Assembly: GCA_964016885.1 (NCBI GenBank)
Contig: OZ024765.1
Location: forward strand, 6,138,001 to 6,202,000
Reading direction: 5' to 3'
Source of the DNA: Eledone cirrhosa
Lineage: Eukaryota
Length of the DNA: 64,000 nucleotides
The translations under genes were made by a program, and so were the position numbers. Of this stretch, positions 5,611 through 62,817 are shown one piece after another (positions within the stretch are counted from its first letter, which is position 1; the number at the start of each line of letters is the position of its first letter). The notes under the pieces are model-generated. The model was given only the letters and a program-made list of their open reading frames with translations, ran no database searches and was not told the origin of the DNA.

Positions 5611-6636
5611 ATGCCAGGAGAGGAGAGGGTTGTGGATCTGCCAGGAGCTGCGACCAGCAGATAGTTTCAGCAATGGAATAACCAAAGGACTATCAGCTCA
5701 TATTTATATATATATATATAGGAAAATGTTTAACCCCCTGGGGTTAAACATTTTCCTATTACCCATCTACTACCTTAAGTATTGATTACTCTGGTGCGTT
5801 ATGGTCCATCTGGTTCCTTACCACACTTCCTTCGTTATATATATATATATGGGTTATATATATATATATATATGTTATATATATATATATATATGTTATA
5901 CATATATTTATATGTTATATCTATATGTATATATATATATATATATAATACATATATGTGTATATTTCATATATATATACACACACTTTATTATAGAAAT
6001 GATTTCTACAGGACTAAAATTTTCCTGATCATTTCTCACAAATGAAACAGTTCTAGTGCTGTAGAGATCATTTCTATAATAAAATGAATATATCTATACT
6101 CTATTGATGTATTGAGTACATTTTCTGACAGTGGTCACCCCAAGATTTACACGAGGACCCTAAATATATATATATATATATATATCAATAATAGAAAGAT
6201 ATATATATAAATATATAAACAATAGAAGGACCAAACGAAATGAGGTTTCCTTGGTGTGATTTCACTACTGTTTTCTTACATATATATTATATATATATTA
6301 TATATGTTATTAGGACAGATTAAAGTTTACGCAAAGAATTGCTGCTTCACCCCTTTACGGGATCTTTTGAAACTCAGAAGATCCCGTAAAAGGGTGAATG
6401 CAGCAATTCTTTGCTTTAACTTTAATCTGTACTAATAATAAATATTTGCTCTTCGGATTTTGGTCTTCACATTTGGTCTTCACATATATATATATTTATA
6501 TATCTCTTTTGAGATGAGTTTGAATTATTTTTCCTACATCTTACGTTAACTATTTTTCCCATCTTGACGACATAGTCGCATATATGTTATGGAATGCTGT
6601 TAGCTTCTCGCTAAAACAATTTCTATACCTTTCATT

Positions 6637-9743: not shown

Positions 9744-9792
9744 GCTCTTCTGATGATTTCATACGGATGAAACAGTTCTAGTCCTGTAAATA
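9744..9792 (+). ncRNA. hammerhead motif related to 39331 (weak stem I); mutated copy at 6022-6068
   Basis: CTGATGA-TTTCatacGGAT-GAAA-CAGttctagtcCTG-TA. Confidence 0.55.
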
Positions 9793-10524
9793 AAGTCATT
9801 TCTATGTATATTATCATCATCGTTTAACATCCATCTTCCACGCTAGCATGGGTTAGACGGTTTTGTTCCATTTGATGCGGGGGTTGGTGAGGAGACCGTA
9901 TCTCACTCGTACAAAGTGCCTCTGGCAGGTTTTCTACGGTTGGATGCTCTTCCTCACACCAACCACTTTTACAGTGTGGACTGGGAGCCTTTTTACCGTG
10001 TCTCCTAGATGACTACTTTACAGTGTGGACTGAGGTGCTTTTTGTTGTGTCACCAACACAGTGAACGGAAATATATATATGTGTGTGCGTGAGTATATAT
10101 AAATTGATAGTCGATCGACAAGATCCCAGGCCTCATTCGCTTAACAAGCGGGGTGGAGCTCGTCAAATCGGATTGAGGAAACAATGTTTCCATTGGTCTT
10201 TCCAATTGCTAATAAAATCTGTCGGTCGTAAATCCAAGCAGAAGGAGCAATGTGAAATAAAGTGTTTTGCTCAAGGACATAACACATTGCCCAGTCTAGA
10301 GAGATAATTATGTAAGATAAAGCCTTTACTGCGAAACAATAGTGTATATAGAGTAATGTAAATGCTAAAGGGTTAAATCAACAAAGTATGAAAGGTAAAG
10401 TTGACTTCGGTGGGATTTAAAGAGAGCACAGAGTCAGAACTAATACCACTAAGGTATTCTAATTGACATTTCAATGACTCAGCCACTTTACCGACACACA
10501 CACACAAATATATATATATATATA

Positions 10525-16045: not shown

Positions 16046-17293
16046 ATATATATATATAAATTCTAGTACAGCATTAACGAAGCTTTAGTTTGCGGCCAAG
16101 CTAACAAATGCAAATTCGGTCTGTAGCTTTAGCACTCAAATGGGAATAGTACCCCATTGTAATAACTATACGTTTAGACAGCTTAGCAAATCAAATATAG
16201 CAATCAGCAGTCCAGCAGCATTATATATATATATATATATATATATGAAAGGTGTGAAATCCTTGGTACAGTTAGGTATATTTGAAAAAAGGAAAAGAAT
16301 GACTTCACTTGTAGTTCTAAACAATTTGATTTAATTTTATAATATTATGAGTTGGTACAACTACAAATGAAGTCATTCTTTTCCTTTTTTCAAATATATA
16401 TATATATATATATATATAAACAAGGTAAAAAGCAAACAAGCTAATGAAGATGAGAGAAAAGTGATTAGTTATATATACATATATTCATAAATCTTTATTG
16501 TTCTCTCCAGCATTTTAAATATATATATATATATATAGTTGTATGGTTGCATGAAAATGCATCCGTAGGTGGTATGCCAGTTGAGCACTCAATGCTCGTG
16601 AAGAGCAGAGTATAATAGTATAAGGATAAGGAACAAGGATTCAGTGTTGCATCATAACATATTTAATAACATATTACATATGTTTCTCTATCGATCAGCT
16701 CGAAGTAAGACTTATTCGGAGACGAATTCATATACTAAACATATCTGATGACCTTCCGATTACAGAGTCAGGTTTGATCTATAATATGTCTTACCTCGAG
16801 CTGATCGGTAGTGAAACATATGTAATATGTTATTAAATATGGTATGATGCAACACTGAATCCTTGTTCCTTATCCTTATAATGTATATATATATATATCA
16901 CCTTGACCTTGACCGACCAGTCTGTCGGGCGTCCAATCGGTGCCGCTGGTCACAGCACGTCATGCTGTTTTAGCCATAAGATAACGCCATCCCACTGGCT
17001 GGGCGGGCAGGCCGGATATATATAGATATATATATATACGATATTAACAAATGGAAACTATATTTATAAAACCATATTTATTTCATTATACATATTTCAG
17101 GGATACCAAATTAAATTATGGTATGCCTTCATCAGACAAAATACAATATATAACAAATTTACAAATAAGCTTTGACACACTCTTTTAAAATGCAACCATT
17201 ATTTTTGGAAGCCATCTGGATAGTATATCCAAAAATAATGGTTGCATTTTAAAAGGGTACGTCAAAGCTTATTTGTAAAACTGTTATATATTG

Positions 17294-17358
17294 TATTTTG
17301 TCTGATGAAGGCATACCATAATTTAATTTGGTATCCCTGAAATATGTATAATGAAATA
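17294..17358 (+). ncRNA. minimal hammerhead motif, AT-rich family (mirror copy 17079-17143 on minus)
   Basis: TATTTTGT-CTGATGA-AGG.ATACCA/TGGTAT.CCT-GAAA-TATGTA-TA^ATGAAATA. Confidence 0.72.
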
Positions 17359-17486
17359 AATATGGTTTTATAAATATAGTTTCCATTTATTAATATCGTA
17401 TATCTATTCCAAATACTTGTCGAGTGCTTTATATCAGTTATAAAAATATTTACTTGTTGTATCCCAACAACTTTAAATAGAACTTT

Positions 17487-17879: not shown

Positions 17880-19559
17880 CTAATGGTAGCTAAGATGCTT
17901 CCATAGGCAGTATGCTGGTTGAGCACTCTATGTTCCAATGGAGCAAAGTATTATAGAAGGGAAAACGAAAAATCAGTGATGCATCAGAACTCAATATACT
18001 GTGTGTTACAATTGTTTCCCCGGTGAACAGCTTGAGGTGCGATCTGTGTGTGGATCTACCTGACTCTAGACTCGCAGGTTCCTCGGACACGTCTATTGAT
18101 TTCGGAGCACATCCCCTGTCCGCCAGGGAAACAATTGTAACACACAATAAATTGAGTTCTGATGCATCACTGATTTTTCGTTTTCCATTCTATATATATA
18201 TATATATATAATATATTATGTATATATATATTATATAGATGATGATATATATTATATATATATATCATATATATATATATATTATGTATATATATATTAT
18301 ATAGATGATGATATATATTATATATATATATAATATATATATATAATATATTATGTATATATATATTATATAGATGATGATATATATTATATATATATAT
18401 CATATATATATATATATTATGTATATATATATTATATAGATGATGATATATATTATATATATATATAATATATATATATAATATATTATGTATATATATA
18501 TTATATAGATGATGATATATATTATATATATATATCATATATATATATATATACACAAATGTTTATTTCCCTCACAAGGTATTGGTCAACCTGCGACTGC
18601 ATTAGATGAAGACATTAGCACAAAGTGCCATATAGTGAAACGGAACCTGCAACCATAGGGTTTCAAAGCAAATTCCCCACCCACACTGCCATGCTTGCTA
18701 CCCCTATACAAAGAACAAGTAACAAAATGCATTGATTAACCCTTTAGCTTTTAAACTGGCCATATCCGGCCTAAATTCTCTCACCTCTTTCAGTTTAAAC
18801 CGACCATAACCGACTGCTCATTCTTATGTTAAGGTATAGTTCTCAAAATAAATAATATCAAAATCTCATAGATTCAATATTATGTGAGGTAAAGACTTTA
18901 CCACAAAAATACAATAGTATATATAGAGTAATGTAAATGTTATGAGATAATTATGTAAGGCAAAGCCTTTACCATGAAGATACAATAGTATATATAGAGT
19001 AATGTAAATGTTATGGGAGATAATTATATGAGGTAAAGCCTTCACCACAAAAGTACAATAGTATATATAGAGTAATGTAAATATTATGTGAGGTTAAGTC
19101 TTTACCACAAAAATACAATAATATATATAGAGTAATGTAAATGCTAAAGGGTTAATAGGGTTATCAATTCAAAATGGTTTTAAGATGTTAGTTTTTAGTT
19201 ATTAGTATTAATTTCACGCCTCAAAAATAACACCAGACTGTGGTGGTGGGGAATATACCCCACCCCACATCGAAAAAAATCAAACAAAATTTTAAAATCC
19301 CACCAATATTAATAGAGGGAAAATAAAAATATTGTGGGGAAAAAAACCAACAAAGTATGAGAGATATATTTGTGGGATGAAGAAATTAAAAAGAAACCAA
19401 AATATTTGTGTTAATCAAGAGAAAATAAATCACGATTTACTAAATTTTTTTCTTTGTTCCATTTCATAAGGAACAGCTTCTTTATCGCTTGTTCTGATTG
19501 GTCGACAAGATCCCAAACCTCATTCAGTTGCTGAGTGGGGTGGACCTTGCGAGATCAGA

Positions 19560-36868: not shown

Positions 36869-37250
36869 CTGGGAAATACATAGAGGATAATAATTATTTC
36901 TTTAAGAGGAAGAAGAAGAATATATATATATATATATATAAGCAAAAGGGATATTCAATTTGTTGGTAATTCAACAAATATAAATGTTTATAACTGATTT
37001 AGAGCACTCAACAGTTTACTGGAGTAAATATTCAATGATATTTAATAAATAGAAACTATATTTATTCTATTATATATATTTCAAGGGTATCAAATCTTTG
37101 GTACGCTTTCATCAGATAAAATACAAAGTTTGTTTTATAAATTTTGACATATCCAAGAAAAGATACCTTACCGGTTCACTATCCAAGAAAAACTTGAACC
37201 AGTAAGATATCTTTTCTTGGATATGTCAAAAATTTATAAAACAAACTTTG

Positions 37251-37311
37251 TATTTTATCTGATGAAAGAGTACCAAAGTTTTGGTACCCTTGAAATATAT
37301 ATAATAGAATA
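37251..37311 (+). ncRNA. minimal hammerhead motif, AT-rich family (mirror copy 37063-37123 on minus)
   Basis: TATTTTAT-CTGATGA-AAG.GTACCAAA/TTTGGTAC.CTT-GAAA-TATATA-TA^ATAGAATA. Confidence 0.72.
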
Positions 37312-37458
37312 AATATGGTTTTATAAATATAGTTTCCATTTATTAAATATCATTGTATATATATATATTTATATAGAAGTGGTTACACAACAGTTAGTTC
37401 ACCATACCGAGAACAATTATTTTACCTTAGCAGATCCTCAGCTCGTAATGTCCATTAC

Positions 37459-37494
37459 GAGCTGAGGATCCGCTAAGGTGAAACAATTGTTCTC
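37459..37494 (+). ncRNA. minimal hammerhead motif, third family
   Basis: GAG-CTGAGGA-tCCgctaaGGt-GAAA-CAATTG-TT^CTC; palindromic stem III. Confidence 0.65.
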
Positions 37495-37730
37495 AGTATG
37501 GTGAACTAACTGTTGTGTAACCACTTCTACCTAACTCGTTCCATGGACTGAGTGCTCTACCACTACGAATATTACCTTCCAGTGTTCTACCACTATATAT
37601 ACAGTGCGTTCTGTTATTAATTCTGGCAATATAACACAAATATGACCCTCCCCAAGTATAACAATATATATATATATATATATATATTATTCAAAATGTT
37701 AACAAATGAAAAATATTCTCAAACAAAATA

Positions 37731-37797: not shown

Positions 37798-38301
37798 TGA
37801 TTTGATATTTTCCATTTGTTAACATTTTGAATAATATTAAAAACTCCATGAAAATCATTTGTTGAGTGCTTCTAATCTATTGTAATATTGCATTCATTGA
37901 GTAATCAACAAACCATACTAATCTTTGGTTATATATATATTTATGTATGTGTGTTGTGTGTCAGTACTTACTTCCTTAGTTTCTGAACCAAATGTCTGTC
38001 AGTGTGTGACTGTATGTGTATGTATGTATGTATGTGTCAGTATATATATATGTGTGTCAGTGTATATATGTATATATATATATATATCACGATAAATTAA
38101 CGGAGGCATAGGCCGTCGTTATTCCCTGTAAATAATGTGCTCAAAGGGGAAGAGATCCTGAGCCCTTTAAAATATAATATGTTGAGAAGGTAACACACCA
38201 GAGAGAGATATATAGTGCGCTATCAATAATACAGGGAAAAAAACTTGTATTATTGATAGCGCACTATATATCTCTCTCTGGTCTGTTACCTTCTCAACAT
38301 A

Positions 38302-38423: not shown

Positions 38424-38459
38424 TCTTAACGTTTCGGACACTAATCCTTCATCAGAAGA
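38424..38459 (-). ncRNA. minimal hammerhead motif, fourth family (degenerate relative at 58883-58914, minus)
   Basis: TCTT-CTGATGA-aGGAttagtgTCC-GAAA-CG-TT^AAGA. Confidence 0.62.
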
Positions 38460-38557
38460 AAGAATGAGAAATAAAATAGATTGAGGGGACGGGCGGGTTG
38501 GAATTGGAAAAAATGTCTTTAGATAAAAATATATATGTGTGTGTCAGTGTATATGTG

Positions 38558-38669
<112 letters not shown>

Positions 38670-39138
38670 TATGTCAGTACTGACTTCATCTACTTGTGTG
38701 TATGAATGTATGTATGTGTCTGAATATATATATATATATAGTAATAATAATAAATGTGAAGACTAAAATCCGTTAAGGGTGAAAGCAGTAATTCTTTGCT
38801 TAAATTTTAATCTGCTATTTTAATAAATATATATATATATATACATGGAAAGTTATATTTAAATTGTTGGGTTAACAACGAGTAAATATTTATAACTGAT
38901 ATAAAAGCACTCAACAAGTATTTGGAGTATATTTATGATATTAAATAAATGGAAACTATATTTATAAAACCATATTTATTTCGTTATATATATTTCAGGG
39001 ATATCATATTAACAATATGTTATGCCATCTTCAGACAAAATACAATATAAACAGTCTTATAAATAAATAGATACGACATACCTGCAAGGTGATTGAAAGG
39101 TATGTCGTATCTATTTATTTATAAGACTGTTTATATTG

Positions 39139-39204
39139 TATTTTGTCTGAAGATGGCATAACATATTGTTAATATGATATCCCTGAAATATATATAACGA
39201 AATA
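39139..39204 (+). ncRNA. minimal hammerhead motif, AT-rich family (mirror copy 38977-39042 on minus)
   Basis: TATTTTGT-CTGAAGA-stem II-GAAA-TATATA-TA^ACGAAATA. Confidence 0.68.
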
Positions 39205-39283
39205 AATATGGTTTTATAAATATAGTTTCCATTTATTTAATATCGTTGTATATATATATATATATGTGTGTTTTAATATAGAA

Positions 39284-39336
39284 AAGCTTCTACAGGACTA
39301 GAACTGTTTCATTCGTGAGAAATCATCAGGAAGCTT
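39284..39336 (-). ncRNA. type I hammerhead motif, mirror copy in the erg pre-mRNA sense
   Basis: left arm of the 39269-39398 palindrome; differs only in loop II (tcac). Confidence 0.8.
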
Positions 39337-39383
39337 CCTGATGATTTCTCCCGAATGAAACAGTTCTAGTCCTGTAGAAGCTT
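39331..39383 (+). ncRNA. type I hammerhead ribozyme motif (complete)
   Basis: AAGCTTC-CTGATGA-TTTC tccc GAAT-GAAA-CAG ttctagtc CTG-TA^GAAGCTT; three stems and GUA cleavage triplet. Confidence 0.8.
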
Positions 39384-39465
39384 TTCTATATTAAAACATT
39401 TATACTCTGCTATGTATTGAGTACCTTACTTACCGTGGTAACCCCCGATTCAACCAGGAATAACT

Positions 39466-39531
<66 letters not shown>

Positions 39532-39538
39532 TACTTAC

Positions 39539-39970
39539 TTCATCGGTTTCTGAACCAAATAGCAACAGGTCGAAAGGTATGGCAGCAACGACATCAATTA
39601 GAAACCAACCCTTGAAATAGTGAACGGCAATTTTTCCCGGATGGCTCACGACTTCATCGTTTTTGTTGACATACGTGGTACGGAAGTTAATAAGAATGTC
39701 GATAATAAACATTACATCGACAATAAGGTCTATGATAGTCAGTGGGTCCTGGTAGGAGCTTTGTACACTCTGGAAAGCTTCTTTTTTACGTTCCTCACTT
39801 AAAAGAAAAGCCGCAACATACGGGGTAAATATTGCAGTGTAAATCACAAGCAATAATATAATCCAATCCCAGGCGGCTTTGAACGGAGAATAGTGCAGAA
39901 TAGTGCATCGGTGGATGCGCGATGATTGCAACTTGTATTCTGGAATAACGTCTGCGCCAAGCGAAAGAAC
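39539..39970 (-). CDS. KCNH2: erg exon: S1-S3 ([15 protein letters not shown]...[16 protein letters not shown])
   Basis: 432 nt, phase 0-0, canonical sites; near-identical to erg S1-S3. Confidence 0.97.
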
Positions 39971-40054: not shown

Positions 40055-40745
40055 TGTATAGGAGGTTTCTTGGGTGTTTTAAAGACATGGGTCTCAGTCC
40101 TTATAAGAGGTTGCTTGGGTGTTTTAAAGACATGGGTCTCACTCCTTATAAGAGGTTGCTTGGGTGTTTTAAAGACATGGGACTCAGTCCTTATAAGAGG
40201 TTGCTTGGGTGTTTTAAAGACATGGGTCTCAGTCCTTATAAGAGGTTGCTTGGGTGTTTTAAAGACATGGGTCTCACTCCTTATAAGAGATTTCTTGGGT
40301 GTTTTAAAGACATGGGCCTCAATCCCTGTAGGAGGTTTATTGGGTGTTTTAAAGACATGGGCCTCAATCCTTGTAGGAGGTTTATTGGGTGTTTTAAAGA
40401 CATGGGCCTCAGTCCTTATAAGAGGTTTCTTGGGTGTTTTAAAGACCTGGGCCTCAGTCTTTATAAGAGGTTTCTTGGGTGTTTTAAAGACCTGGACCTC
40501 AGTCCTTAGAAGAGGTTTCTTGGGTGTTTTAATGACATGGGACTCAGTCCTTATAAGAGGTTTCTTGGGTGTTTTGAAGACATGGGCCTCAGTCCTATCA
40601 TTGTTATAGCTCACATCTATGTAGGGTTAGCTGACCTCTTACAAATGTGTATCTTATAGGAGGTTTCTTGGGTGCTTTAAAGACATAGGCCTCAGTCCTT
40701 ATGAGATGTTTCTTGGGTCTTTTAAAGATATGGGCCTCAGTCCCA
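40055..40745. repeat. 51-bp minisatellite next to the S1-S3 acceptor
   Basis: cttgggtgttttaaagacatgggtctcagtccttataagagg. Confidence 0.93.
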
Positions 40746-41097
40746 TCATGTTATAGATCACATCTATGTAGGTTTACATCTAATAGGAGGTGTTTTAATG
40801 ATAGGGAACCCCCAGTCTTGTCATGTTCTTACAGCTCATACCTATGTAGGTTTAGCTGACCTCATATGAGGTTACTCGGGTATTTTATAACCAACTTTCT
40901 CATTATTAAGCCGGTGTTTGGAACATAACTTAACAAAGGTTCTTACACGAAATTATCATGAAAGGGTTTTAGTTACTGATGCTGCTGCTGCTGCTGATAA
41001 ACATTTGAAAAGATGTAATTTTATATGGTAGAAGCAGTAGCAGTTTAACATAGTGCAGTACAAAAAGAGTTAAAATAAAAGGGAGCTCAAATCTCAC

Positions 41098-55762: not shown

Positions 55763-56771
55763 GCATATATATTTATGCATATTTATGTATGCATATATAT
55801 ATATTCATTTCATTTCATTTTACGTCCGCTTTTCTCTGCTTGCAAGGGTGGGACGGGAACTGATTCTGGTTTGATTTCTACAGCTGGATGCCCTTCCTAA
55901 CACCAACCTCATTTACAGTGAGTGCTGGGTGCTTTTTTGCCGTGGCGCCTCCACGACCACTTTGCAGTGGGATGATAGGGACCCCAGTCCCTATCATCTC
56001 ATTTCTACAGCTGAGTAAACTGGAGCAATGTGAAATAAAGTGTCTTGCTCAAGGAAACAACACATCACCCGGTCTGAGAATTGAACTCACAACCTTTCGA
56101 TTGCAAGCCCAATGCTCTAACCACTAAGCCATGTGCCTCCAATATATGTATGTATATATATACATGTATGTATATATACATATATATATGTATATATATA
56201 TATACACATACATGAAAAAAAAGCATCCAGTACTCACTGTAAATGGAGTTGGCATTAAGGAAGGGCATCCTGCAGTAGAAAACAAGCGAAAATGAGTTCT
56301 GTATGACTAAGATGTGTCATCTCATCTAACCATGACTTGCCTCAAATAGGACAATACGTCGAACCCATGCTAGCATGGAAAATGGACGTTAAACAGTGAT
56401 GATGAAGGCAAAGTTAACCTCGGCGGGATTTGAACTCAGAACGTTAAGGGCCATAACTCTATGCTGCAAAGCATGGTGTCTGACACTATACCGATTCTGC
56501 CAATCCAAATAATTATTTCTACTTTTGGCACAAGGCCAGCAATCATCGCAGTGCATTACTGGTACCTAATTTCATTGAACCCGTAAGGATGAAAGGCAAA
56601 GTTAACCATGGCGGGATTTGAACTCAGATCATAAAGGGCCGTAACTCTATGCTGCAAAGCATGGGGTCCGACTACCAATCCACTGCCTTGCCAATCCAAA
56701 TAACAAAAACATGTTGCTAAAAAAAAAAAATTTTTTTTTAAAAAAAAATGGAGGGGGGGGATTCTACTTAC

Positions 56772-57735: not shown

Positions 57736-58607
57736 TTTCATATTATTTATTTTGATACCAATACCTTAAAATCAGTATGAGTGGCCAGTTATGACAGGTT
57801 TGAACAGAAAGAGGTGAGAGAATTATCCCTCCAAAACTAGAGGCTGACTTGTCCGCTGAATATAAAATGTGGAAGTGTGCGAGCTACTTCACCTGAGCTA
57901 CACTTCAGAATTTTAGGGGTCAATCTATGCACCGGATTGATTTGTACGCTGGCATATACGGTATATATCATCATCATCATTTTACGTTCGCTTTTCCCTG
58001 CTTGCAAGGGTGGGACGGGAACTGATTCTGGCTTGATTTCTACAGCTGGATGCCCTTCCTAACACCAAACTCATTTACAGTGAGTGCTGGGTGCTTTTTT
58101 GCCGTGGCGCCTACACGTCCACTTTGCAGTGAGTGCTGGGTGCTTTTTTGCCGTGACACCTCCACGACCACTTTGCAGTGGAATGATAGGGACCCCAGTC
58201 CCTATCATCTCATTTCTACAGCTGAGTAAACTGGAGCAATGTGAAATAAAGTGTCTTGCTCAAGGAAACAACACGTCACCCAGTCTGAGAATTGAACTCA
58301 CAACCTTTCGATTGCAAGCCCAATGCTCTAACCACTAAGCCATGTGCCTCCATATATACATATATATATATTTCTAGACCAGAAATAGCCGTCGAAACGG
58401 CTTGAGCTCTGCCGTCAGGGTTAAACTTTTTCCTGTTACCGACTCTACTACCTTAAATATTGAGTACTCTTGTGCGTTATGGTCCATCTGGTTCCTTACC
58501 ACACCTCCTTCGTTATATATATATATATATATATATATAATGAGTTAACAAAAAGAAAATTCCCTGAATCACCTATGTATATATATGTGTGTGTGTATAC
58601 ATACATA

Positions 58608-59741: not shown

Positions 59742-60257
59742 GTACACATACACCCAAATTCAGTAGACTAAAGATAGATTGAATAAATAGTAAACAACAG
59801 GCTGCCACACATGACCCACAAATAAACTTTAATGATAACCACGCCTTAACATCCTGTAATGATTCGGTAGAAAATATAGAAAAACACGTTTGTTAATTCT
59901 AATGTTTATAGTATCTTTACAAGTGGTCAGATTGTTGTGAAAATTTATAGTTTTATATCTTAACATCCTGTAATGATTGAGCAGAAAATATCTAAAAACA
60001 TGTTTGTTAATTCAAATGTTTACAGTATATTTACTGGTGGACAGATTGTTATGAAAATTTACAGTATTAGAGTAAAAACTTTCATGTTTAATGTAATGTA
60101 GTCATAGTGTTGTTTTGTACTAAATATTTATAGTATCTTTACTGGTGGAGAAATTGTTATGAAAATTTACAGTATTAGAGTAAAGACTTTAATATTTAAT
60201 GAGCGTCTGTGGTACTTTTGCCTGACACAAACCCGAACTGCATTTCATCTAGGTCAA

Positions 60258-62817
60258 TTGGAAGCTGAAAGTCCCCTCAACCAGTAACAGATTTAAAGAT
60301 ATTTTACTCAACGCCTACGACAGTAAAGAAGAACAGATAGAGACATTTAACGTAGAAGAGAACTGGGAGTTCCTAAAAAATAACTTACTAGAGGCGACGG
60401 ATGAGGTTTGTGGCTGGAGTAAGACCTCAAGCAGGAGGAGAGTGACTTGGTGGTGGAACAATAAGGTAGATGAAGCAGTCAAGGCCAAGAGACAGGCATG
60501 GAAAGAATGGAAGAACGGGGGGAGCAGGGTACATTACATAGAGACCAAGAGGGAAGCTAGGCGACAAGTATACTTAGCTAGGAGGGAAGCAGAGGATAGA
60601 AAATTCAAGCATGTTTTACAACGTGAGGACCAGAAACAGGAGGTATTCAAGATTGCGAGGCAGTGTGTCAGAGATAGTTGTGATGTCATTGGAGAGAAGT
60701 GTATCCGGAATGATAAAGGTGAGCTTGCCCTCACAAGTGCTGAGAAGAAAGATGCATGGAAGAGTCATTATGATAGATTACTAAATGAGGAGAATGCATG
60801 GGAAGAAGAGACCCTACCCCACGTAGACCCTATAGAGGGACCAGCAGTACAAGTCAGCGGCAGCGTAGTAAGTAAGGCAATCAGAGATATGAAGATAGGG
60901 AAGGCAACCGGTCCATCGGGTATAGCTGCCGAGATGCTGAAGGCATCTGGGTCTGTAGGTCACACTATAACCACACGTATCGTTAACCAGGTAATACTAG
61001 AGGGGGCCATACCAAAAGATTGGTGCAGTAGCATCATTGTCAACTGCTACAAAGGTAAAGGCGATGCACTAGATAGAGGAAACTATAGAGGTATAAAGTT
61101 GATGGACCAGGTCATGAAAGTAACAGAAAGAGTTATAGCACAGCTGATTAGGGACCGGGTGAATATAGACGAGATGCAATTTGGGTTTGTACCAGGGAAA
61201 GGCACCACTGATGCGCTCTTCCTTGTGAGGCAATTACAGGAAAAGTACCTAGCTAAAAGTAAGCCACTCTACTTGGCATTTGTCGACCTTGAGAAAGCCT
61301 TTGACAGAGTTCCACGTGCAGTAATCTGGTGGGCTCTTAGAAAACTAGGAGTAGATGAATGGCTTGTGAAAGCGGTACAAGCCATGTATAGGGGAGCAGT
61401 CAGCAAAGTTAGGATTGGCAATGAGTATAGCGAGGAATTTAGCGTACAGGTTGGGGTCCACCAGGGCTCTGTTCTTAGCCCTCTCCTGTTCATCATAGTC
61501 CTGCAGGCAATAACGGAGGAGTTTAAGACCGGATGCCCATGGGAACTCCTGTATGCTGATGACCTCGCACTCATAGCTGAATCTATGGTAGAACTAGAGA
61601 ATAAATTCCAAACCTGGAAGCAGGGACTAGAGAGAAAGGGCCTCAAAGTCAACATGACAAAGACTAAGGTCCTTATAAGTAGACGAGAAAACAGAACCCA
61701 GATCCCCTCAGGGAAATGGCCTTGCTCAGTATGTAGGAAAGGTGTAGGTAGGAACTCCATTCTTTGCCCCAAATGCAAACAATGGGTACACAAGAGATGT
61801 AGCGGGATCTCAGGAAGCTTAATTAAGAATGTAGGATTCACATGCAGCAGCTGTGCTGAAACAGCAAGCAAACAGCCACAGGAAACAAGTACCACCAATC
61901 TCTGGGAGGGCCCTGTAGAAACAGTAGACAGCTTCTGCTACCTAGGTGACCGAATTAGCAACGGAGGTGGGTGCTCAGAAAGTACAATAACTAGGGTAAG
62001 AACGGGATGGAAGAAGTTTAGGGAACTACTACCACTGCTAGCTGCAAAAGGCTTCTCCCTCAGAATGAAAGGCAGACTGTATGATGCGTGTATCCGAACA
62101 GCGATGTTGCATGGTAGTGAGACCTGGGCGCTGAAGGTGGAAGACTTACGTAGATTAGAGAGAAACGAAGCCTGCATGCTCCGATGGATGTGTAACAGTA
62201 ATATACGTGAACGACAAAGCATAAATGAATTGAGAGAGAGACTGAGCATAAGAGGAATCAAATGCTGCGTGCAGGAGAGGCGGTTACGCTGGTATGGACA
62301 TGTGATGCGTATGAAGGATGACAGCTGCATAAAAAGGTGCAGAGCACTAGAAGTTGATGGAAACCGCGGAGTGGGGAGACCCAAGATGACTTGGGATGAG
62401 GTGATAAAAGCCGACCTTACCCAACTACACCTCTCAAAGTCAATGACACACGACCGTGACTTCTGGCGTCACGCAGTAATACAGGGTACCCGACCTCCCA
62501 TGGGTACATGCTGAAGCATATAAACAATATGCCCCCCCCCCCCCACCGCAAGGTGGTCGTGGAGGTGCCACGGCAAAAAAGCACCCAGCCCACACTGTAA
62601 AGTGGACGTGTGGGCGCCACGAAAAAGCACCCAGCACTCACTGTAAATGAGGTTGGTGTTAGGAAGGGCATCCAGCTGTAGAAATCAAGCCAGATCAGTT
62701 CCTGTATGAGCAAGGCATGGTCAGCCGACCAGACACTGCCCACAACAGGACAACCCGTCTAACCCATGCTAGCGTGGAAGAACGGACGTAAAACGGTGAT
62801 GATGATGATGATGATGA
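60258..62817 (+). mobile_element. 5'-truncated RTE-clade LINE with 3'UTR and (GAT)n tail, antisense in an erg intron
   Basis: Open frame from about WKLK (60259) to TGA 62514; RT motifs NYRGIKL, QFGF, FVDLEKAFDRV, GVHQGSVLSP, YADD; RLRWYGHV C-terminus; no endonuclease domain; inserted into a ~122-bp satellite. Confidence 0.95.
60442..62514 (+). CDS. RTE reverse transcriptase ORF (partial, 690 aa as called) with internal PHD-like zinc finger
   Basis: ORF track; YADD catalytic motif; CSVC...CPKCKQWVHKRC...CSSC. Confidence 0.9.
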   Translation: MTWWWNNKVDEAVKAKRQAWKEWKNGGSRVHYIETKREARRQVYLARREAEDRKFKHVLQREDQKQEVFKIARQCVRDSCDVIGEKCIRNDKGELALTSAEKKDAWKSHYDRLLNEENAWEEETLPHVDPIEGPAVQVSGSVVSKAIRDMKIGKATGPSGIAAEMLKASGSVGHTITTRIVNQVILEGAIPKDWCSSIIVNCYKGKGDALDRGNYRGIKLMDQVMKVTERVIAQLIRDRVNIDEMQFGFVPGKGTTDALFLVRQLQEKYLAKSKPLYLAFVDLEKAFDRVPRAVIWWALRKLGVDEWLVKAVQAMYRGAVSKVRIGNEYSEEFSVQVGVHQGSVLSPLLFIIVLQAITEEFKTGCPWELLYADDLALIAESMVELENKFQTWKQGLERKGLKVNMTKTKVLISRRENRTQIPSGKWPCSVCRKGVGRNSILCPKCKQWVHKRCSGISGSLIKNVGFTCSSCAETASKQPQETSTTNLWEGPVETVDSFCYLGDRISNGGGCSESTITRVRTGWKKFRELLPLLAAKGFSLRMKGRLYDACIRTAMLHGSETWALKVEDLRRLERNEACMLRWMCNSNIRERQSINELRERLSIRGIKCCVQERRLRWYGHVMRMKDDSCIKRCRALEVDGNRGVGRPKMTWDEVIKADLTQLHLSKSMTHDRDFWRHAVIQGTRPPMGTC

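Follow-up and report, generated by a model that had tools for sequence, protein, structure and literature searches.

A double-hammerhead palindrome in a potassium channel intron of Eledone cirrhosa, most likely a by-product of Penelope-like retrotransposon insertion

The 64,000-nucleotide stretch of Eledone cirrhosa DNA analyzed here (the window; contig OZ024765.1, positions 6,138,001 to 6,202,000) carries a palindrome in an intron of a potassium channel gene, with a hammerhead ribozyme motif on each of its strands. This raises the question of whether it is a self-locked ribozyme retained by the host, which editing or unwinding would set free to cut the channel pre-mRNA, or a structure left behind by a mobile element.

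The palindrome, its hammerhead motifs and the predicted lock

The palindrome at 39269-39398 consists of two 65-bp arms, for which 64 of 65 pairs are complementary outward from the centre between 39333 and 39334. The sole mismatch (39316 T versus 39351 C) is located inside loop II, so that the 130-bp palindrome with one mismatch described by a first-pass annotation was reproduced. Its folding z-score was −23 with 0 of 200 shuffles equally stable, which is far above chance, and the full hairpin has a predicted free energy of −102 kcal/mol. The neighboring exon at 39539..39970 (minus strand) encodes the S1–S3 region of a KCNH2/ERG-type potassium channel, as it matches KCNH2/hERG with an E-value of 1.4e-69. 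The host intron has its donor GT at 39538-39537 and its acceptor, read from the sequence, at 36869, giving a length of 2.67 kb; the palindrome hence lies 140–269 nt into this intron, which agrees with the annotated 140–270 nt downstream of the S1–S3 donor. The same intron contains a 39-nt partial copy (37955-37993, 90%) of the exon donor region 39522-39560, and a 45-bp minisatellite of approximately 15 copies (40055-40749) is located directly upstream of the exon.

A type I hammerhead motif was located at 39331..39383 on the plus strand, with the core starting at 39338 and the predicted cut between 39376 and 39377, and another at 39284..39336 on the minus strand, which is that of the pre-mRNA, with the core starting at 39329 and the predicted cut between 39291 and 39290. 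On each strand, stem I is followed by CUGAUGA, a single U, stem II (3 bp, 4-nt loop), another U, and GAAA, and then by stem III (4 bp, 8-nt loop), UA, and the 3' strand of stem I, so that the core boxes CUGANGA, GAAA, and UH and the three helices of a type I hammerhead are all present. The claim of a complete hammerhead on each strand therefore stands for the motif, but the motif is weak. It has U.U at 10.1/11.1 instead of G10.1-C11.1, and a single arm adopts the hammerhead fold with a probability of 0.017 in a nearest-neighbour folding model, while the best RNAfold structure of one arm retains stems I and III without the hammerhead stem II. When the palindrome was searched against Rfam, no hammerhead family was matched, whether at the gathering score or with the cut-off relaxed to E ≤ 10, and the only matches were to sub-threshold miRNA hairpin models.

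Further motifs of this kind occur in the window. Three larger palindromes of another repeat family (38937-39244, 37053-37321, and 17034-17403) carry outward-facing hammerhead-like motifs, one on each arm, in the same geometry as at 39269-39398, and the arms of the first are identical at 147 of 147 positions. A palindrome of a third family (37374-37529) contains a hammerhead-like core at 37462 (plus strand), near which its arms are joined. A minimal hammerhead motif with a 4-bp stem I (approximately 38425-38460, minus strand, core at 38455, helices assigned by eye) lies on the pre-mRNA strand of the same channel intron outside any palindrome, and judged by its sequence it is more likely than the palindrome to be an intronic ribozyme free of such a lock.

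The lock itself was predicted to be complete: the full hairpin sequesters the ribozyme as annotated, leaving the hammerhead fold with P ~1e-52, and with P ≤ 1e-47 in co-transcriptional prefixes. The annotated order, in which the antisense arm is transcribed first, is correct, yet it applies to either strand of every palindrome of this kind. The proposed release by editing was not borne out. The hammerhead fold reached P 1e-39 when all adenosines of the first arm were read as G, 1e-17 when all 20 of them were made unable to pair, and at best 1e-12 among 750 randomly drawn editing patterns in which the core was left unedited, so that modelled A-to-I editing leaves P at or below ~1e-12 in these nearest-neighbour models, which are without true inosine parameters. 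Moreover, six adenosines of the core lie within the duplex and are themselves editable.

At 39 palindromic loci, 81 arm differences were distributed at 0.062 per core site, 0.046 per stem site, and 0.043 per free site; the core and free rates do not differ significantly (p 0.24), indicating neutral decay of the core after insertion, although many of these loci were picked by likeness to the window copy and a class-level test says little on one young copy. Both cores are intact at 17 of the 39 loci, one at 18, and none at 4. Both are intact at the window locus too, which, together with the complete predicted lock and the distance of 140 nt from the splice donor, speaks for a host function; intact cores are however expected when the arms differ at just 1 of 65 positions. 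The genome holds approximately 4,876 such loci (matches with a join within ~13 nt of the window copy's and a tail on at least one arm, among which a two-tailed locus may count twice), and the window contains the three further double-hammerhead palindromes of another family, two of them in the same intron. We consequently regard it as highly improbable that the host keeps a self-locked ribozyme to be released by editing or unwinding and to cut the channel pre-mRNA.

The parent element and its head-to-head copies

The insertion extends beyond the 130-bp palindrome to 39467, and its two arms are unequal. The long arm (39332..39467, plus strand) is an element end that begins with the first stem I base and takes in the hammerhead and the tail, and it is 95.6% identical over 136 nt to L098:1521-1656, which continues into a reverse transcriptase (RT) open reading frame (ORF). 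The short arm (39269..39335, minus strand), which presents the sense ribozyme copy on the channel pre-mRNA, is an inverted copy of the element end with 98.5% identity over 67 nt to the repeat preceding the ORF in L098; it stops at the near 3' end of the family, likely a proximal RT start. Common to both arms is the AGCT at 39332..39335, which makes up the first four stem I bases in uninverted copies, while a 69-nt tail (39399..39467, plus strand) is present on one arm only. The whole is seated in a (TA)n/(TG)n tract, of which the left flank (39259..39268, plus strand) has the same 10 bases as the right flank (39468..39477, plus strand). These direct repeats are a possible target-site duplication, for which their low complexity makes them weak evidence. 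The annotated palindrome bounds are thus correct, but the extent to 39467 and the identity as a Penelope-like retrotransposon end had been missed.

Using one arm as the query, 69 matches were obtained among 40 scored of 381 candidates, many of them as opposed pairs. Exact-pattern counts over the genome, for each of which the reversed-pattern control gave 0, placed a 20-mer of the tail at 18,088 positions, the exact 22-nt centre of the window palindrome at 122, and the uninverted junction at 534; the first two, like the 4,876 head-to-head matches, are lower bounds. The control was likewise 0 for the patterns of head-to-head, two-tailed, and cut-site-centred copies. Two older, diverged copies of the same family end also lie in the window (6019-6141 and 9744-9794, plus strand). 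Other repeats in the window include a 753-aa open frame with RT motifs (60253-62514, plus strand), which we take to resemble an RTE-type LINE, and two tRNA-like matches of near-identical sequence (56074-56131 and 58281-58344, minus strand), which are probably SINE heads.

Uninverted copies continue upstream into a longer repeat, and 2 of 30 uninverted loci (L097 and L098) continue past the tail into an ORF, so that the hammerhead sits in a terminal repeat adjoining the ORF start. Following the same hammerhead and tail, both loci contain a broken RT-GIY-YIG ORF with the motifs RWR, DKT, YRD, and CNC-x5-C; the upstream repeat and the ORF are present, the 3' ends are interrupted, and no full-length downstream hammerhead repeat was found at these loci. 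The GIY-YIG domain was matched in Pfam with an E-value of 0.0048, below its cut-off, and no RT match was obtained from Pfam and PDB sequence searches of the parent ORF; the RT was recognised from its motifs, by eye, against a published Hydra alignment. IKRIRWR and SSDKTKN in both loci correspond to the RWK (here RWR) and the DKG-to-DKT change that mark the Hydra clade, and so do, in the translations of L097 examined by eye, a CxC-x5-C linker before GIY-YIG, the absence of CCHH, and CxxC and CxH near the end. The (TA)n insertion target in the flanks of the copies is also that of the Hydra clade, and the adjacent inverted 5'-truncated copy with a tail on one end only is that of Penelope-like elements. 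These motifs place the parent as a putative Hydra-clade, endonuclease-positive Penelope-like retrotransposon. Beside the parent copies are more Penelope-like ORFs of other families (L097:4625-6014 and L098:5586-7387), one of which forms a 560-bp inverted pair.

Copies of the family have two 3' ends, approximately 60 and 130 nt past the core. Among the first 30 tail copies ordered by position, 16 of the 29 that could be aligned have an adjacent inverted arm, and all 16 of these arms end at the short site. This position-ordered set is preferred to a best-match set, in which 2 of 16 inverted-arm calls were TA-repeat matches and at least 2 real arms were missed. A tail on both arms was found at only 39 loci genome-wide, and hence a long arm is nearly always paired with a short one. 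The joins peak at stem I, where the 4,876 matches compare with 449 in the next equal-width bin outward, many of the latter having, by eye, short inserted duplications at the same point. Relative to the core, the sense arm of the 29 position-ordered copies starts between −8 and +3 in 10, between −20 and −9 in none, further out in 8 (extending >20 nt past stem I), and inside or past the ribozyme in 11; the join is a peak rather than a point, as 16 of the first 100 matches listed have joins deeper in the ribozyme (by eye).

An assembly or library artefact, namely a fold-back chimera, is scarcely credible as the origin of such structures. Contigs of four public runs were available, none of which spans the window locus, and in a run of organism B they hold the family and the exon (with 34 differences), the exon contig ending before the insertion site. 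Contigs of runs X1, X5, and X6, however, cross the centre of family copies, and the arms differ within loci, with a fixed asymmetry, so that the palindrome class is real. At the 39 palindromic loci, the arms differ at 2.1 of 43 nt within a locus versus 3.9 between loci; this similarity could also stem from repair between the arms.

Because the palindrome is one of approximately 4,900 similar structures and matches a Penelope-like element end, it is most likely an insertion by-product and not an editing-controlled switch. We conclude with considerable confidence that in it a Hydra-clade Penelope-like terminal repeat and a shorter inverted copy of itself meet head to head in a (TA)n tract, and that it is now dead and with no role in the channel gene. 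Stem I covaries between subfamilies (C-G in 26 of 36 copies and A-T in 4 of 36), by which the ribozyme looks maintained in the active element and not in the inserted copies. The genome accordingly holds thousands of near-perfect short hairpins, which could be editing or small-RNA substrates when transcribed.

A possible route of insertion

Uninverted copies read YC and then AGCTTC at the start of stem I. Since their stem I starts with AGCT, the window copy appears as a fusion through four self-complementary bases, and its seventh stem I pair was created by the fusion. The AGCT word is not required, however, because the hotspot is also found in a subfamily that lacks it. In 28 of 35 uninverted copies, which are related and represent approximately three lineages, a TATA box is located 29–31 nt upstream of the first stem I base, across three different spacer sequences; 3 copies have none and 4 have it at other distances. 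The pairing of long and short arms, together with joins at the first stem I bases approximately 30 nt below a conserved TATA box, suggests that the palindrome centre is probably the transcription start of the element, where two run-off cDNAs were joined.

Starting from the observed family identity, copy numbers, long-plus-short arm rule, junction hotspot, and neutral decay, the following route may be proposed. A TATA promoter in the repeat would set the RNA start at the first stem I base, and the element enzyme would nick both strands of (TA)n. Two cDNAs would then be primed on the opposite strands at two internal sites, approximately 60 and 130 nt down the RNA, and both would run off its 5' end. 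Their 3' ends would be joined by microhomology, here the self-complementary AGCT, to give a palindrome without a spacer; AGCT at 39332..39335 is thereby both the predicted transcription start and the putative joining microhomology. In transcripts that cross the locus, neither copy of the ribozyme is predicted to be active, because of the hairpin. An RNA start at stem I combined with double priming at two internal sites is, on the sequence evidence, somewhat better than an even proposition. We likewise lean, if slightly, toward the broader reading that thousands of palindromes record Penelope-like insertion in vivo, in which one RNA that begins with the first hammerhead base serves as template twice, from two fixed internal start sites, for cDNAs on opposite nicked strands, and these run-off cDNAs are then joined end to end. 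If true, this would account for both the inverted copy and the one-sided tail, and the ribozyme would sit at the very start of the capped element transcript. The family further offers thousands of countable junctions with sharp predictions, namely a start site at stem I and a long arm paired with a short one.

Palindromes centred on the predicted cut site are rare (11, some of them not family copies), which is in line with an uncleaved template; against the 122 with the exact centre of the window copy, cleaved RNA was rejected as the main template. A splice acceptor before stem I was also set aside as the cause of the hotspot, as the junction listings contained no shared upstream exon (by eye). 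A cap-derived extra base was sought at the junctions, where it is indistinguishable from one-base microhomology or fold-back.

The hotspot might instead reflect reverse transcription that stops at the edge of stem I, either by fold-back of the cDNA on its own stem I or by stalling on the ribozyme fold, and not the start of the RNA. Four loci (L010, L028, L109, and L112) do join one stem I strand directly to the other, and in two subfamilies that differ by a compensatory change in stem I, the hotspot falls on the helix boundary. This explanation nevertheless leaves unaccounted for that the TATA box stays at −29 to −31 across different spacers; a stall would be expected on entry into a helix rather than on exit from it, and the ribozyme fold is weak. 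We therefore consider it unlikely, though worth keeping in view. The exact 22-nt centre common to 122 copies could alternatively come from a miniature element able to copy itself and to spread whole. The promoter, however, lies outside the palindrome, the arms follow the subfamily variants of the parent, and the junctions vary widely, with the 56-nt length of the window copy found in 9 of the first 50 places listed (by eye), which makes such an element very unlikely.

Relation to known Penelope-like elements and retrozymes

An inverted truncated copy with a one-sided tail has already been described for Penelope-like elements (PMC8557442). Two internal RT starts bounding the tail, both strands cut and extended, a predicted dimer, and insertion for which ribozyme cleavage is not needed have been reported in another clade (PMC11167929), and dual hammerheads on opposite strands, with low activity of such motifs, in PMC4209133. 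Both PMC8557442 and PMC11167929 describe the origin of the inverted structures, the second-strand steps, and the ribozyme role as unresolved.

The closest likeness is to the Hydra-clade elements (Craig et al. 2021, PMC8557442), including Penelope-13_HM and Hydra-1_Obim, which share the C-terminal GIY-YIG, the RWK-like and DKT motifs, the CxC-x5-C linker, the (TA)n target, and a 3' hammerhead. In 14 of the 25 Hydra families listed (by eye), stem II is likewise closed by U...U, and Penelope-13_HM is listed, like the window copy, as having hammerheads on both strands and a truncated copy in inverted orientation. Hydra-1_Obim has a different hammerhead, so that the window element represents another family, and its protein also differs by eye. 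The tail is approximately 69 nt in the window family versus 30–40 in Hydra-clade elements, and the inverted copy is, unlike in the descriptions of that clade, usually trimmed down to the ribozyme, any spacer being short or absent.

PAc (Poseidon from Anolis carolinensis; Frangieh et al. 2024, PMC11167929) likewise has a hammerhead where repeat and ORF meet and an AT-rich target; its tail is defined by two internal RT starts, both strands are cut and extended, and uncleaved RNA is its main template. It belongs to a different clade, and its ORF starts inside the ribozyme, whereas the ORF motifs of the window family start after the tail; neither long–short arm pairing nor a stem I start site is described in the text covered. 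No description of the long-plus-short arm rule or the stem I start site was found in the Penelope-like literature covered, mostly openly accessible papers.

The minimal hammerheads of metazoan Penelope-like elements (Cervera and De la Pena 2014, PMC4209133) have the same type I motif in a terminal repeat, mostly in truncated copies, and opposite-strand pairs. These pairs are 100–700 bp apart, whereas the window pair overlaps by four bases, and they have a long stem II, G10.1-C11.1, and a minimal stem III, in contrast to the 3-bp stem II, U.U, and 4-bp stem III of the window motif. Non-LTR retrozymes (PMC7229834; bioRxiv 10.64898/2026.07.22.740005) are also reported to carry a type I hammerhead, within a short non-coding repeat that is related to Penelope-like ends. 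They form head-to-tail tandems with at least two hammerheads on one strand, whereas the window locus is head-to-head with one per strand, and a retrozyme identity was rejected on this ground. The head-to-head arrangement is thus already known for Penelope-like elements, while the long-plus-short arm rule and the clustering of joins at stem I below a TATA box are apparently new.
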